54,549 nt of DNA from a virus. Its lineage: Duplodnaviria; Caudoviricetes. The stretch is taken from IMG/VR virus record IMGVR_UViG_3300011126_000071, positions 1-54,549 of that record. One strand, 5' to 3'. Below are positions 15,840 to 20,335 of this stretch, in pieces (position 1 is the first letter of the stretch; the number at the start of each line of letters is the position of its first letter). The notes under the pieces were generated by a model. It was given only the letters and a program-made list of their open reading frames with translations. It was not told the origin of the DNA and searched no databases. The translations under genes and the position numbers were made by a program.

Positions 15840-16112
15840 TTATATAGTTTCGTTTTCAGTGTACCACATTTTATCTTTAGAACGGTCATAGTCCATCTGG
15901 TCTTTAACAAATTCAATAAAGTCATCAGAAGGAATTGGGCAATCAACTTCTTTAACATAAACTTCCCATAACTCATCTTCTGTTTCAAATTCTTCATCAG
16001 TTAGTTTATAGGTATTTAAATCATTGATTATGTCAATGACTTTAGTTCCTTTATACTTGTTCTCAAAGTTTATAACTGCGTAGTCATAACCATCTATAAT
16101 TAATAATTTCAT
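15840..16112 (-). CDS. Hypothetical protein
   Basis: 90-aa acidic ORF coupled to the upstream HTH gene. Confidence 0.65.
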   Translation of the reverse strand: MKLLIIDGYDYAVINFENKYKGTKVIDIINDLNTYKLTDEEFETEDELWEVYVKEVDCPIPSDDFIEFVKDQMDYDRSKDKMWYTENETI

Positions 16113-16339
16113 TAGTCTGCTTGTTTTTCTAATTTATAAATCGAATAACGAATCTTATCACCAAATTTATTTGTACCTTCTACAATCTCAGATGAAATCT
16201 CATGCCCATCTTTCTTTAAGTTGAAGATAGTTGCAGCCAATCTAGTGTTACCTAATTGATTAATTGCATACCATGGGGAAATTGTTCTACCATTCTGCAT
16301 TGCATCTAATACTCTTTGTTTGTGCGTTACTTTTGCCAT
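16112..16339 (-). CDS. Small winged helix-turn-helix DNA-binding protein
   Basis: KQRVLDAMQNGRTISPWYAINQLGNTRLAATIFNLKKDGHEI...YSIYKL fits a common phage wHTH pattern. Confidence 0.8.
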   Translation of the reverse strand: MAKVTHKQRVLDAMQNGRTISPWYAINQLGNTRLAATIFNLKKDGHEISSEIVEGTNKFGDKIRYSIYKLEKQAD

Positions 16340-16368
16340 AATTTTTAATTTTAATTATTAATAAAGTA

Positions 16369-16400
16369 CAAATATATGGATAATATTCCATACTTCCAAA
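16369..16400 (-). promoter_or_regulatory. Bacteroidota-type promoter TTTG-N20-TATATTTG
   Basis: Exact -33 TTTG and -7 TAnnTTTG on the minus strand, upstream of the HTH gene. Confidence 0.75.
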
Positions 16401-16411
16401 TAAAAAGTGAA

Positions 16412-16702
16412 TTATTTATCCACCGTTACTATTTTAATTCCCTTATCTTCGAAATACTTAACACATGTTTCACATATGATTTTATTTCCTTTAGATGTAA
16501 ATGCTAGTGCTATCATAGAACCGTTAGTGGCCCACTTAGAACCACAACACTTACATGACTTCCTACCACGAGAAAGTTTAGGTCTTTCCGTATATATCCT
16601 AATCCAATCTTCATTGGTGCTGAAATTTAAGTATATCTTAGTGATATCAATGTTAACTGTTGTAATCTCTTCCCACCCATTACTATTCTTTACTCGTCTC
16701 AT
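16412..16702 (-). CDS. Small putative Zn-finger protein
   Basis: CKCCG...CETC cysteine pairs. The ATG at 16702 is preferred because the track start at 16717 lies upstream of the promoter -7 element. Confidence 0.6.
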   Translation of the reverse strand: MRRVKNSNGWEEITTVNIDITKIYLNFSTNEDWIRIYTERPKLSRGRKSCKCCGSKWATNGSMIALAFTSKGNKIICETCVKYFEDKGIKIVTVDK

Positions 16703-16706
16703 ACGA

Positions 16707-16738
16707 CAAATATACAAATAAAAAACGGGAAATACAAA
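16707..16738 (-). promoter_or_regulatory. Bacteroidota-type promoter TTTG-N20-TATATTTG
   Basis: Exact consensus, ending 4 nt before the ATG at 16702. Confidence 0.75.
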
Positions 16739-16757
16739 TGTAAATCCCGTTTTTTTT
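16720..16757 (-). terminator. Rho-independent terminator overlapping the next promoter
   Basis: AAAAACGGGA...TCCCGTTTTT inverted repeat. Confidence 0.8.
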
Positions 16758-16785
16758 ATAGTTAACTCTTTATTTTTAGTTTATA

Positions 16786-17649
16786 TTAAACTCTAGTCCC
16801 ACATGATGGGCAAAATTTAAAATTTGGTTTTTGTTTATTTCCACAGTTGGTACAGTATCTTTTAATTACTGTATCTTGAACTGTATTCACCTTTTGTGAT
16901 ACTGGTAACATCTTGTACTCAATTGAATGGAATGGGGAATGTTCCCAATTCATATAAACCGTTTCAAGTGTTTGGTCTGATTTACTACCAGCCTCAACTC
17001 TTCCAGTCTCAACAGGTTTCTTACTTCTAAGAGTTTTTCTTTTCTTAGATTTAAGTTCTTTCCTAGGTTCTGGTGCAATACTTTTTTCTAATGATTGGTC
17101 CATGAAATCCAAAGTAGCGGTATTAATAGATGTATTAGACCCAATAAGACCATTTACATTAGTACTAGAAAGTGCTGTGTTATAGTAGGTGTGATTTGGA
17201 CCACCGAAGGAACCACCATAATTACTACCACCAAATTGATTACCCATACCGAATGGTCTACTTGGTTTATAAAGGATTGGTGTACTCTCTTTATAGAACT
17301 CTACCTTGAAGTCACCGTTATCTTCAATCGCTACTCTGCTCTCAGACGTATTTGCAACCTCATAGGTGTCGAATTTGAACTTTCTAGCCACATCTATATA
17401 CCTGTCAAGGAAAACTCTCTGAGCGGGCTTTAAAACAAGTCCACCTTGAGCTATGGGTTTTCCATTAAGGAAAATCTTAGCCATGATAGTATCTTTAGTT
17501 GGATTGAATAGTTCGATTTGGAACTCTTGCCCTTTTTGTAGATAGTAAGTAGGGACTTGTGAAGTCTTACTATATAATTTAATCCTACTTTTGTTTATAG
17601 CTAGGTTAGCTACGGGCGTAGGAATACCCTCGTTTGTTGTTTTGTACAT
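16786..17649 (-). CDS. Hypothetical protein with C-terminal zinc ribbon
   Basis: N-terminal beta-rich domain (EFQIELFNP...GLVLKPAQRVFLDRY) and C-terminal YCTNCG...FCPSCG. Confidence 0.8.
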   Translation of the reverse strand: MYKTTNEGIPTPVANLAINKSRIKLYSKTSQVPTYYLQKGQEFQIELFNPTKDTIMAKIFLNGKPIAQGGLVLKPAQRVFLDRYIDVARKFKFDTYEVANTSESRVAIEDNGDFKVEFYKESTPILYKPSRPFGMGNQFGGSNYGGSFGGPNHTYYNTALSSTNVNGLIGSNTSINTATLDFMDQSLEKSIAPEPRKELKSKKRKTLRSKKPVETGRVEAGSKSDQTLETVYMNWEHSPFHSIEYKMLPVSQKVNTVQDTVIKRYCTNCGNKQKPNFKFCPSCGTRV

Positions 17650-17678
17650 TTTTTAACTTTTTTAATTTAATTATTATC

Positions 17679-17741
17679 GTACCAATCTTTTTACTTCCTT
17701 TTGAAAGTTCTAAAGTCAAATTAATGACTCAAGACAAATAC
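17679..17741 (-). ncRNA. Candidate cis-regulatory three-way-junction RNA in a 5' UTR
   Basis: GUAUUUGUCUU/AAGAUUGGUAC encloses hairpins GAGUCA-UUAAUU-UGACUU and ACUUUC-AAAA-GGAAGU. Folded by eye only. Confidence 0.4.
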
Positions 17742-17757
17742 ATAGAGTTAACTTTTA

Positions 17758-17789
17758 CAACTATAATAAAAAAACCCAAAAAAGTCAAG
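17758..17789 (-). promoter_or_regulatory. Host-type promoter (TTGACT-N17-TATAGT; equivalently CTTG-N20-TATAGTTG)
   Basis: About 110 nt upstream of the ATG at 17649; overlaps the terminator hairpin. Confidence 0.55.
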
Positions 17790-17802
17790 CAATTTTGGGT
17801 TT
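17768..17802 (-). terminator. Rho-independent terminator after the Cys-rich peptide gene
   Basis: Minus strand AAACCCAAAA...TTTTGGGTTT followed by a T run. Confidence 0.7.
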
Positions 17803-17813
17803 AAATTTTTAGT

Positions 17814-17879
17814 TTATTTTTTGCAACAGTCACAACCGCAGTCACACGGGCACTTTTCGCAATTACATTTTTCACACAT
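17814..17879 (-). CDS. Metallothionein-like 21-aa peptide MCEKCNCEKCPCDCGCDCCKK (not in ORF track)
   Basis: Translated by hand: ATG...TAA, 9 Cys in CxxC/CxC/CC patterns, GC-richer than its flanks, A-rich leader, 20 nt after the upstream stop, followed by a terminator. Confidence 0.75.
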   Translation of the reverse strand: MCEKCNCEKCPCDCGCDCCKK

Positions 17880-17899
17880 AGTATTAATTTTAGTTATTG

Positions 17900-19315
17900 T
17901 TATTGTGATATTCTCAATTCACTTTGACTTACGATGTCAAATGAAAGAGTTTCTTTTATTGTAGTTACTTCATTGTTTGATGTCACCTTAACATCTAGAT
18001 AATAAGTGTTTGGAATAAGACTTTCAGTGTGAAGTAGGAAATAGTTATGGTTAAATGACCTTTCTACTGGTTGGAAATCGATTACAGTTAATTCATTTCT
18101 ACCCTCTTTAACATATAACCTATATTCTAAATCATCAATTACAGCAGTTTGGTTAGTTGTATAAGGAATTCTAGCAGTTACTTGTACACGTCTAATATCA
18201 CCTCTTTTAATTCTTTCGTCTCTTCTAATTCCAGATACGTTAAATGCGTACTTCTGAGGCATTGTATCATTGTTTCCTATGTTGTAATACTTATTACTAT
18301 CAACCAACGCAAAATCCATCTCTATATCTGGTCTAGAAATACCGTTAATGGTTAATCCTTTCCATACATCGTTGAATAGGTAACAATCAGTGTAAGCACT
18401 TGTAGTTGGTACCATAACCTCAACACAGTAAACACCCTTAGTTACGTGAGTAACAGCACTAGATGTAATACTAGAAAACACTAATCCGTTATTATCAACT
18501 ATATCAACACTTGGTAGTGTATCAAGATTAACTGGGTTGCCACCAGCATTAACGTATAGATAAAGTTTATTTGTTTTATCTAAATAGAAATTCGCTCTAT
18601 CATCAGTAATATGACAATCATAAACAGTTTCAACATGTGGTTCATAGAATGTTTGAGTGTGTCTAGTGAAGAATCCAACATATTGGTATGAACCTGTTTC
18701 AGTTAATTCTAATGCTCTACTAAATGCAATACCTAATCCGTAGTTAGTATCACCAGTAAGGTATCCATTAACAATATCAGAAATATCTAACTCAATATTC
18801 TCATTACCTTGTTCAAAGTGTATTGTATTCAGTGGTGTTGTAGAACCAGTAAAAGTTCCATTACCACCAGACCAAGAAATGTTTGTTTGTGCCTCAACCC
18901 AATTAGAAGGACATATCGATGTTGATGATGCATCACCACCTAATGAGTGTGTTGCACAAGAATCATAATCATACCCAACACCTTCATCCCAAGTTTGGTT
19001 AATTGGGAAAAGAATAAGGTCAAATGAGCATGCTCTATCTTTACCATCACAAGTTGTCTTACCTAATAATTCTTTATCAAATGAACCAGTATTAGTAAGT
19101 CTAAGAGTGTGTTTAAGTTTTGATAAATCAGCATATGTTCCACCGCTATATAATTCTTTTAGGTTGGTTTCATCGAAATAGAATAATAATCTACTGTATT
19201 TATTTTCAGCATCTCTACCACCATAGAATAATTCAGACACAGGGTTTCTACCAGTGTTTGTTATATTATTATATATAATTGTGTTGTTTCTATCGAAAAA
19301 TGTACGTACTACCAT
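17900..19315 (-). CDS. Putative virion structural protein (baseplate/tail-associated)
   Basis: 471 aa; SRLLFYFD...QTWDEGVGYDY...GFFTRHTQTFYEP blocks; late motif upstream. Confidence 0.65.
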   Translation of the reverse strand: MVVRTFFDRNNTIIYNNITNTGRNPVSELFYGGRDAENKYSRLLFYFDETNLKELYSGGTYADLSKLKHTLRLTNTGSFDKELLGKTTCDGKDRACSFDLILFPINQTWDEGVGYDYDSCATHSLGGDASSTSICPSNWVEAQTNISWSGGNGTFTGSTTPLNTIHFEQGNENIELDISDIVNGYLTGDTNYGLGIAFSRALELTETGSYQYVGFFTRHTQTFYEPHVETVYDCHITDDRANFYLDKTNKLYLYVNAGGNPVNLDTLPSVDIVDNNGLVFSSITSSAVTHVTKGVYCVEVMVPTTSAYTDCYLFNDVWKGLTINGISRPDIEMDFALVDSNKYYNIGNNDTMPQKYAFNVSGIRRDERIKRGDIRRVQVTARIPYTTNQTAVIDDLEYRLYVKEGRNELTVIDFQPVERSFNHNYFLLHTESLIPNTYYLDVKVTSNNEVTTIKETLSFDIVSQSELRISQ

Positions 19316-19330
19316 GTTGTTTGCTTTTAT

Positions 19331-19338
19331 TATAAATA
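19331..19338 (-). promoter_or_regulatory. Putative late promoter TATTTATA (minus strand)
   Basis: 15 nt before the ATG at 19315. Confidence 0.7.
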
Positions 19339-19348
19339 CAAACGAAGA

Positions 19349-20335
19349 TTAATTAATACGGATGTTTTTAGATAATATTTGTTCTAAATCATACTCATTC
19401 ATATCTTGCATAACTTTAGCGGTTGCTGATGAACCTTCACTATGTGGTGTAATACCTGGGTATTTATGAGTATGATTACTAATAGCATTTTTAACTAACT
19501 TAAGAAATTCAACTAATTTATCACCAAATACTAGTGGGTGTGCTTCACTTAATATTTTTTGCATTTCTTCATCACTAATAAGATTGTCTTGATTAGTTAG
19601 GTTAAATCTAGGATTACCTTCTTTATGAGTTAATAGATTAATTTTATTTGATACTATATTTGTTACCGAACCGTATTCTGGGGTAGCGTTATTATTTTCT
19701 GGCACATTAATCTGAGCGTTATATTTTATTTGAAGATATCCTTGTGTACGGTTGTTAAATTTATAACCTAACCTTTCATCAAACTCATCATCACTTCTAG
19801 TGTTGTTAGCTAAATCACCTTTGAATACAAACTTACCAGCTCTTAATAATACCTCTTCTTTTTTTAATATTAAATCAGTATTTTTCCTACCTTGTAAAGC
19901 AATATCTTCTTTTTTTGGATAACCACCTCTAATTTTCTTTCTATTTGTTGGTGCTGGACCTAAATCATTTCTACCAAAACTAAAACCATCCCAAGCATGG
20001 ATATCATATTGTGCATCTTCTAGAAATTGTGGTTGTGGTATAATTGGTCCTAGATACATTCTATCTATTTTATTATTTTCGTTTGTGAATGAAAACAATA
20101 AGACCGCTTCTTTTAAATTAGGTACAACATTAATGTGTTTTGGTAACATAGGAAATGCGTATGCTGTATCAGAATCAGTTTCATTGTTATCAACACCCAT
20201 AACTCTAACTTTAATTCTACCAGCATCATTTGGGTCATCAATAGACATAACCTTACCTCTTTGAATAAAAGTTATTTTATTATCACCTTGATATGAGTTT
20301 TTACCCTCTCTATTAAATTTCCCTACAAAATACAT
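19349..20335 (-). CDS. Baseplate spike/hub protein with gp5/GpV-like N-terminal OB fold
   Basis: GKVMSIDDPNDAGRIKVRV...AFPMLP...VP...EAVLL at the N-terminus; HTHKY (HxH) motif near the C-terminus. Confidence 0.75.
   Translation of the reverse strand: MYFVGKFNREGKNSYQGDNKITFIQRGKVMSIDDPNDAGRIKVRVMGVDNNETDSDTAYAFPMLPKHINVVPNLKEAVLLFSFTNENNKIDRMYLGPIIPQPQFLEDAQYDIHAWDGFSFGRNDLGPAPTNRKKIRGGYPKKEDIALQGRKNTDLILKKEEVLLRAGKFVFKGDLANNTRSDDEFDERLGYKFNNRTQGYLQIKYNAQINVPENNNATPEYGSVTNIVSNKINLLTHKEGNPRFNLTNQDNLISDEEMQKILSEAHPLVFGDKLVEFLKLVKNAISNHTHKYPGITPHSEGSSATAKVMQDMNEYDLEQILSKNIRIN

Follow-up and report, generated by a model that had tools for sequence, protein, structure and literature searches.

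Downstream of a conserved gene in a large tailed phage lies an open reading frame (ORF) of only 21 codons, nine of which specify cysteine. This locus raises two questions: whether so short a frame is a gene at all and, if it is, what a peptide of this composition would do in an infected cell. The initial annotation, made from the DNA letters alone, had proposed a late-expressed peptide of the metallothionein kind that buffers or delivers metal.

The window and its cysteine-rich micro-gene

The DNA analysed here (54,549 nucleotides, the window hereafter) comes from an IMG/VR virus record as a fragment of 54.5 kb; its GC content is about 32%, and its estimated completeness of 16% implies a genome size of roughly 340 kb. 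A block of T4-like morphogenesis genes is present (terminase, gp20-type portal, prohead protease and gp23-type major capsid protein), with tail/baseplate-like genes, a large glycosyltransferase cluster, PhoH and dUTPase on the opposite strand; no tRNA genes were found in the window. With A-rich leaders and Shine-Dalgarno (SD)-like 4-mers ahead of only 5 of the 59 long ORFs, the window points to a host that probably starts translation independently of SD sequences. Neither a megablast of positions 16300-19400 nor a tblastn with p471, the 471-residue product of the gene upstream of the micro-gene, gave a match among GenBank phages. The product of the gene downstream, p287, had homologues of 31-50% protein identity in GenBank, in 15 records of Lak megaphages and 7 of other huge phages; in the distant loci found through p287 (L001-L005, from Lak megaphages and LR7565xx huge phages) there was no Cys-rich micro-ORF within 4 kb. 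The features of the region are given below in the 5' to 3' order of the minus strand.

19330..19339, minus strand: promoter-like motif GTATTTATAA, about 15 nt ahead of the p471 start; candidate (perhaps late) promoter of a unit comprising p471 and the micro-gene
17900..19315, minus strand: p471, a conserved all-beta multidomain protein of 471 aa (29 related loci, 39-88% identity)
17880..17899, minus strand: A-rich spacer of 20 nt from the stop of the 471-aa gene to the ATG of the micro-gene, with no SD and no terminator
17814..17879, minus strand: micro-gene, ATG to TAA, 21 codons plus TAA, product MCEKCNCEKCPCDCGCDCCKK
17768..17802, minus strand: intrinsic-terminator-like hairpin and U-run (hairpin 17772-17802), with a 10-bp stem and an 11-nt loop
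17760..17788, minus strand: sigma-70-like promoter of the next unit (TTGACT, 17 nt, TATAGT; 10 of 12 matches), kept across 10 aligned loci
17660..17745, minus strand: structured 5' leader of p287, strongly conserved and outside the micro-gene unit, with two predicted hairpins
16786..17649, minus strand: p287, 287 aa, with a C-terminal zinc ribbon (Pfam Zn_Ribbon_1, E = 1.6e-6, residues 265-286)
16412..16717, minus strand: ORF of 96/101 aa with CxCC and CxxC motifs seen by eye; no Pfam match

Re-reading of the sequence returned the minus-strand ORF exactly as it had been described, with 9 Cys among 21 residues (43%). The initiator Met is the sole aromatic or aliphatic residue of MCEKCNCEKCPCDCGCDCCKK, so that the statement that the peptide has none needs only this amendment. 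The CxxC, CxC and CC spacings that had been pointed out are present and are conserved across the family alignments described below. The ORF was also said to be richer in GC than its flanks, to have an A-rich leader and to start 20 nt past the upstream gene; its GC content is 39% against 29% in each 300-nt flank, and both statements about the start were confirmed. Given how rarely SD-like 4-mers are found ahead of the long ORFs of the window, the missing SD is not evidence against translation of the micro-gene. When the highest Cys count per 21-aa window of ATG ORFs was compared with 100 first-order Markov simulations, the real sequence reached 9 and the simulated ones 4-6; with a simulated maximum of 6, nine Cys are not attributable to chance. 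Since 21 residues are too few for a signal peptide, and none is present, the product would stay in the reducing cytoplasm.

Fusion to p471 by read-through or frameshifting was entertained and rejected. The stop-to-stop frame of the micro-gene overlaps the end of p471 in the window, L006 and L098. In L009, L012, L013 and L036 a stop codon lies directly upstream of the ATG, so that independent initiation is the feature that the loci share.

A family of related micro-genes in phage contigs

An anchor search with p471 gave the 29 related viral loci, two of which end at the gene with no downstream DNA. A Cys-rich micro-ORF followed the p471 homologue in four of the 29 (L006, L009, L012 and L013). 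When the loci with downstream sequence were ordered by p471 identity, the micro-ORF was present in 4 of 14 at 59% or above and in none of 13 at 52% or below. Scanning viral contigs for the C-terminal motif gave 6 stretches: four members, including one on the L009 contig and one truncated at a contig end, one possibly related 68-aa ORF (L037) and 1 chance match. The same scan of metagenome contigs gave more than 118 stretches, and 12 of the 80 loci examined had family-like micro-ORFs; the other 68 were made up of 4 long Cys-repeat proteins, 63 chance matches and one locus (L108) that is the contig of L037. A looser scan of viral contigs for CxCxCCKK followed by a stop gave 26 stretches with 6 members, one of which was new (L228, on a 197-kb contig). 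As these scans favour intact C-termini, decayed copies cannot show up in them.

Among the matches listed, the family comprises at least 16 distinct DNA sequences and at least 14 distinct peptides on about 19 phage contigs. Its peptides have 18-37 residues with 7-10 Cys (24-44%), and most end in CCKK. The ATG start and the reading frame are kept in all 16 distinct sequences, and the differences in length are whole codons. The filler residues are K, E, D, N, G, T, S and P; 11 of the 14 distinct peptides are without F, W, Y or H, and a single Trp in L006 and in L113 and a single His in L091 are the exceptions. Cys begins at residue 2 in 10 of the 14. Members other than that of the window include the following.

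MCEKCKCETCPCDCGCDCCKK, in L046 and L098
MCNCEKCNCNGKCGENCKCDCCKK, in L036, L038 and L111
MCTCEKCDCGGNCGENCTCDCCKK, in L009
MCNCENCNCGENCTCDCCKK, in L072, L090 and L099
MSECENCNCGCNGECENTCNCTCNKN, in L013
MDEEKECTCKDCNPNGQCECTGECEETCTCGCCKK, in L012

The variant in L006 and L113 has a Trp- and Pro-containing stretch in place of three central Cys, which leaves 7 Cys and indicates that the full set is not always required. At positions 4502-4516 of L006, an extra A in the terminal A-run (7 versus 6) moves the stop, so that the product gains two residues (KKIN); L113, otherwise near-identical, terminates at KK.

Several further observations were made during these scans. At positions 1289-1527 of L228, the 30-aa member overlaps, through ATGA, the stop of a 49-aa basic ORF with a CKKGCGCKMCK stretch, and the two are possibly a translationally coupled pair. 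Look-alikes ending in CDCCKK were found in L050, next to a terminase-like gene on a GC-richer contig that uses SD sequences, and in L091, among genes that match PHROGs; these may be either homologous or convergent. Four metagenome contigs (L048, L076, L103 and L105) carry ORFs of 134-174 aa built of repeated Cys-rich modules, which also end in CDCCKK and have 13 Cys within the last 30 residues; they look like multi-domain metallothioneins of some other organism. In prokaryotes, a scan for CDCCKK followed by a stop in one genome per species (about 185,000 species) gave 60 matches, none of which was a member, with a pattern that would miss variants.

The cysteines are under purifying selection

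The initial annotation had suggested looking, at the same intergenic position in related phages, for a conserved Cys pattern with synonymous changes, and this is what we found. Selection was assessed in the five members that are 24 aa long and align without gaps. Synonymous differences between them are near saturation (pS 0.55-1.1), while pN is 0-0.17, and the variable sites are distributed over codon positions 1, 2 and 3 as 4, 6 and 20 (binomial P = 2e-4). All 9 Cys columns are invariant in this set, and 7 of the 9 use both TGT and TGC. Close pairs follow the same pattern: all 5 differences between L036 and L038 are synonymous, so that their peptides are identical, and the single difference between L046 and L098, from the 21-aa group, is likewise synonymous. 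The peptide of the window differs from that of L046 and L098 by two amino acids (N6K and K9T). In the alignments, the residues between the Cys vary fast, while the Cys and the C-terminal CCKK stay fixed. On this pattern of substitution, the micro-gene is a real protein-coding gene whose Cys are under purifying selection.

As selection acts on the protein, and specifically on its Cys, both a chance ORF and a purely nucleic-acid element are excluded. The ORF is very short, has no SD and belongs to no database family, as would a fortuitous frame or a non-coding TG-rich element; the Markov control, the frame kept in 16 of 16 sequences and the concentration of changes at third positions refute this interpretation, to which we assign a negligible probability.

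The micro-gene probably shares a unit with p471

The micro-gene was described as following a late virion gene. In an AF2 model (pLDDT 72) p471 is all-beta; its best matches in BFVD are uncharacterised Myoviridae proteins and its PDB matches are generic Ig/FN3-type folds with low TM, and it belongs to no PHROG or Pfam family. It lies in the T4-like morphogenesis region and is probably structural; the designation as a late virion gene is plausible. As there is no terminator between p471 and the micro-gene, the two would be co-transcribed. A search of sequencing runs found no RNA run that contains the stretch.

The window has a TATTTAT core before p471, and all 14 relatives of 52-88% identity that were compared have it at the same place. 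The motif at 19330-19339 is a one-mismatch copy of ATATTTATAW, which has 8 copies in the window (at 795, 5380, 9587, 22830, 44567, 44591, 47564 and 49487) against 3.0 +/- 1.9 expected, mostly 10-25 nt ahead of the starts of structural genes. We regard motifs of this type as candidate phage promoters, perhaps late ones.

At the other end of the unit, the terminator that had been proposed after the micro-gene was borne out by folding. The hairpin and its U-run lie 11 nt past the end of the micro-gene and have a folding energy of -10.7 kcal/mol (z = -2.8), which was matched by 1 of 200 shuffles; since its loop exceeds 8 nt, a simple terminator scan left it uncalled. Its arms vary between loci and yet remain complementary, and its loop CTTGAC is invariant, as read by eye from the alignment. 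The hairpin is also found in relatives without the micro-gene.

The hairpin forms part of a compact terminator-promoter module (17760-17802, minus strand), in which the terminator loop CTTGAC holds the -35 element TTGACT of the next promoter, TTGACT spanning the loop and the 3' arm. Beyond it, the p287 leader of about 85 nt is nearly invariant among loci whose flanking proteins share only 47-69% identity. It recurs in L006, L007, L008, L012, L013, L014, L040, L046, L063, L072, L098, L099 and L113, has compensatory changes in 3 of 14 predicted pairs, and travels with the 287-aa gene even where a GalE-like gene is inserted upstream. An Rfam search of 17400-18100 gave sub-threshold noise and no family. 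The leader is a candidate cis-regulatory RNA.

The two genes downstream had been credited with CxxC zinc motifs. For p287 this was upheld by the Pfam zinc ribbon; the motifs of the 96/101-aa ORF are visible by eye and have no counterpart in Pfam. This second ORF adjoins a winged-helix gene at 16112-16339.

The micro-gene is accessory cargo of a variable slot

The interval from p471 to the terminator-promoter module is a variable cargo slot, a hot spot that lies between 17650 and 17900 in the window and has p287 as its downstream border. Its content in the loci compared was as follows.

Slot empty: L007 and L008 (p471 81-82% identical)
Micro-gene alone: the window, L006, L098, L113, L012 and L013
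127-130-aa ORF and micro-gene: L046 and L063
127-128-aa ORF, micro-gene, then GalE-like epimerase: L081 and L090 (epimerase ORF cut by the contig end in L090)
Order as in L081 and L090, with the contig ending inside the upstream ORF: L072 and L099
90-aa ORF, micro-gene, epimerase: L009
90-aa ORF region as in L009, then micro-gene and another terminator: L036, L038 and L111

The cargo of the slot can also include a GP88-family gene. Two complete genomes of the clade were available, a 362-kb one with one copy of the micro-gene and a 353-kb one with none at the level of the CxCxCC pattern. Since the micro-gene is found with different genes upstream (p471, the 90-aa ORF or the 127-130-aa ORF) and different elements downstream (the terminator or the GalE-like gene), it moves as a unit of its own. 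Read from these arrangements, the micro-gene is self-contained, mobile within the clade and dispensable accessory cargo, and its absence from L007, L008 and one complete genome means that any benefit is conditional.

Two suggestions about its partners lost their footing here. Supply of metal to Cys-rich virion proteins is unsupported, as the micro-gene is missing from close relatives that keep the same neighbours and from one complete genome; a gene that is absent where its neighbours persist is dispensable cargo and not part of a fixed assembly pathway. A linkage to the zinc-ribbon genes downstream fares no better, as elsewhere a GalE-like gene or other ORFs sit between.

Comparison with metallothioneins

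The peptides have the features that define metallothioneins as a class: low molecular mass (21 aa in the window, 18-37 aa in the family), a high content of Cys in CxC, CxxC and CC arrangements (9 of 21 residues; 24-44% in the family) and few or no aromatic residues (none in the window peptide). They matched no model of the named metallothionein families (the Pfam Metallothio_ series and the SmtA type). Pfam, PHROGs and NCBIfam gave no real match to the peptides at E <= 10 (7 peptides in the case of Pfam), a profile search of 1.84 billion representatives gave none at E <= 0.001, and a profile search of the PDB gave only noise. These blank searches place the peptide in no described family, and they weigh little, since a compositionally biased profile of 24 positions has little power. 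Around the 35-aa member, the ESM Atlas showed a single named family, the metallothionein family PF02067, at 0.82 and thus below the 0.9 mark, which we take as a lead only. An AF2 model of the same member, built from 6 sequences and without metal, had a pLDDT of 62.6 and a pTM of 0.24, with no confident fold. The designation as metallothionein-like therefore stands at the level of size, Cys spacing and lack of aromatics, and does not extend to homology with any described metallothionein family.

The beta-domain of vertebrate metallothioneins has nine Cys, which are the ligands for three divalent ions. Like the phage peptide, this domain arranges its nine Cys as CxC, CxxC and CC and is Lys-rich and free of aromatics; it belongs, however, to a protein of about 60 aa with two domains, and there is no homology signal between domain and phage peptide, the latter being shorter by about 30%. 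Fungal copper-thioneins, such as that of the Neurospora crassa type, have roughly 25 aa. They share with the phage peptides a single domain of about 20-30 aa dominated by CxC, with small polar fillers and no aromatics, and in both one metal-thiolate cluster per peptide is likely, which for the phage peptides is a prediction. The phage peptides differ in reaching 44% Cys, in ending in CCKK and in being phage-encoded, and no sequence relationship to the fungal proteins was detectable with Pfam. The zinc-finger micro-proteins of archaea and bacteria hold a single Zn with two CxxC pairs in 40-70 aa. Like the phage family, they are encoded by small ORFs that annotation overlooks, as is described for small proteins generally in the available part of one source (PMC13525628), and they use Cys to hold metal, whereas the phage family packs 7-10 Cys into 18-37 aa.

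The bacterial SmtA/BmtA and Pseudomonas metallothioneins have in common with the phage peptides a prokaryotic context, small size and richness in Cys (PMC10612145, available text). The same text describes the bacterial proteins as longer, with His and hydrophobic residues and a zinc-finger-like fold, and gives SmtA as binding 4 Zn and PflQ2MT as binding 3 (PMC10612145). In contrast, the phage peptides are without a hydrophobic core, 11 of 14 are without aromatics and His, and none matches a Pfam model. In these respects the peptide resembles animal and fungal metallothioneins more closely than the bacterial SmtA type, as far as composition and spacing can indicate.

Our searches of a literature library for phage-, virus- and prophage-encoded metallothionein peptides found none of this form, and we know of no characterised phage peptide like it. 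The notion that phages carry metal-sequestering genes is itself shared with published candidates for viral auxiliary metabolic genes (AMGs): the accessible part of a fumarole-virus preprint lists metallothioneins among AMG candidates (PMC13317609), and that of a review states that temperate phages transfer metallothionein genes in metal-contaminated soil (PMC12917443). In the accessible part of a phage paper, metallothionein appears only in the gene table of a genomic region (PMC3974807). As far as the accessible text of the preprint and the review goes, those candidates are homology-based annotations of known families, whereas the micro-gene is below gene-caller size and has no family.

Alternative explanations

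The composition that suggests metal binding could also serve other ends. A small Zn-organised or thiol-based binder of a specific host or phage protein, acting as an inhibitor or against host defence, would use its Cys as a scaffold and not as a buffer. Patchy small accessory genes in variable slots are typical of host-takeover and counter-defence cargo, the residues between the Cys change quickly while the Cys and CCKK are fixed, and the L006/L113 variant tolerates the loss of three Cys, all of which would suit such a binder. Against this, there is almost no conserved non-Cys surface from which a binding interface could be made, no partner gene co-occurs, and zinc-finger micro-proteins are far less dense in Cys; we consider a binder unlikely. 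Metal-independent thiol chemistry, with the peptide buffering the redox state, scavenging oxidants or electrophiles or storing cysteine for the infected cell, draws on the same evidence of composition as the metal reading, and the available text of one source reports metallothioneins to be protective against reactive species (PMC10612145). The conserved CxC, CxxC and terminal CC spacing is nonetheless what cluster geometry would call for and not what a simple thiol pool needs, and free thiolates so dense would presumably take up Zn or Cu in any case where these are available, which makes a metal-independent role less probable still. Taken together, a protein binder and a metal-independent thiol role form a minority prospect of appreciable size.

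Two further explanations would give the ORF a function without a thiolate-rich end product. As a short Cys-rich ORF, it might encode the precursor of a ribosomally synthesised and post-translationally modified peptide (RiPP), for instance with a Cys-rich core modified by a radical-SAM enzyme; one member has a noise-level resemblance (E = 1.1) to the NCBIfam 'Cys-Xaa-Xaa-Xaa repeat radical SAM target' model, and L036/L111 and L228 have, no more than about 500 nt away, a gene of the GP88 family with a cluster of Cys. We found no maturase family among the 61 window proteins scanned, and no co-occurring enzyme; the neighbours differ between contexts; and the peptides offer no leader or follower, 10 of the 14 having Cys from residue 2 on. 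The GP88 linkage was rejected because GP88 runs opposite to the micro-gene in the two complete genomes: G001 carries the micro-gene and no GP88, whereas G002 has GP88 in two places and no micro-gene. A RiPP is accordingly very unlikely in our estimation. The ORF might also be a Cys-codon leader peptide that attenuates the terminator behind it, in which case its translation and not its product would matter: 9 of 21 codons are Cys codons, and 11 nt separate the ORF of the window from the hairpin behind it. Synteny contradicts this idea, as in L009, L072, L081, L090 and L099 a GalE-like gene directly follows the ORF with no terminator, while L007 and L008 keep the terminator without the ORF. Folding of the whole region gave no competing anti-terminator pairing, the genes downstream encode a zinc-ribbon protein or a GalE-like epimerase and not cysteine metabolism, and the conservation of CCKK, with purifying selection on non-Cys residues too, suggests that the product itself has a function; attenuation seems to us slighter even than a RiPP as a prospect.

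A putative metal-thiolate peptide of huge phages

The reading that we favour, and hold to be probable from sequence features, is that the micro-gene encodes a cytoplasmic metal-thiolate micro-protein, metallothionein-like in kind, which buffers or sequesters metal in the infected cell. The micro-gene would be transcribed with p471 from the conserved TATTTAT-type promoter-like motif, in a unit ended by the hairpin terminator, and translated independently as a 21-aa thiolate-rich cytoplasmic peptide. With this thiol density, binding of Zn, Cu(I) or Cd would be expected; most likely the peptide folds around a small cluster of metal ions, as metallothioneins do, and nine Cys would suit about three Zn or Cd ions or several Cu(I) ions. 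Its role would be to buffer or sequester metal ions or thiol-reactive species during infection, with a conditional benefit, and the gene would be an optional cargo of a variable slot in a clade of roughly 350-kb phages, with look-alikes in other phages.

A bolder version of this proposal, which we rate at somewhat under an even prospect, is that no gene-encoded peptides of the metallothionein type shorter than these (18-24 aa, up to 44% Cys) are known, and that they form a phage-specific family with no cellular counterpart at the level of the pattern scanned in one genome each of about 185,000 prokaryote species. The micro-gene would then move between variable slots of jumbo and other phages and, where the habitat is sulfidic or rich in metal, reset the zinc, copper or thiol homeostasis of the host.

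The locus shows that ORFs far below the thresholds of gene callers can be conserved and selected cargo of huge phages. Judged on its sequence, the product of the micro-gene would be a phage-specific relative in kind of the metallothioneins, metal binding being the best supported reading. If this is true, it would be the first characterised phage-borne peptide of the metallothionein type and among the smallest metal-cluster peptides that are directly encoded by a gene. The peptide is accessible by chemical synthesis, so that metal binding and its stoichiometry are quickly testable. If the metal reading holds, the presence and absence of the micro-gene could be read against the chemistry of the habitat, and it would represent a new kind of auxiliary gene.
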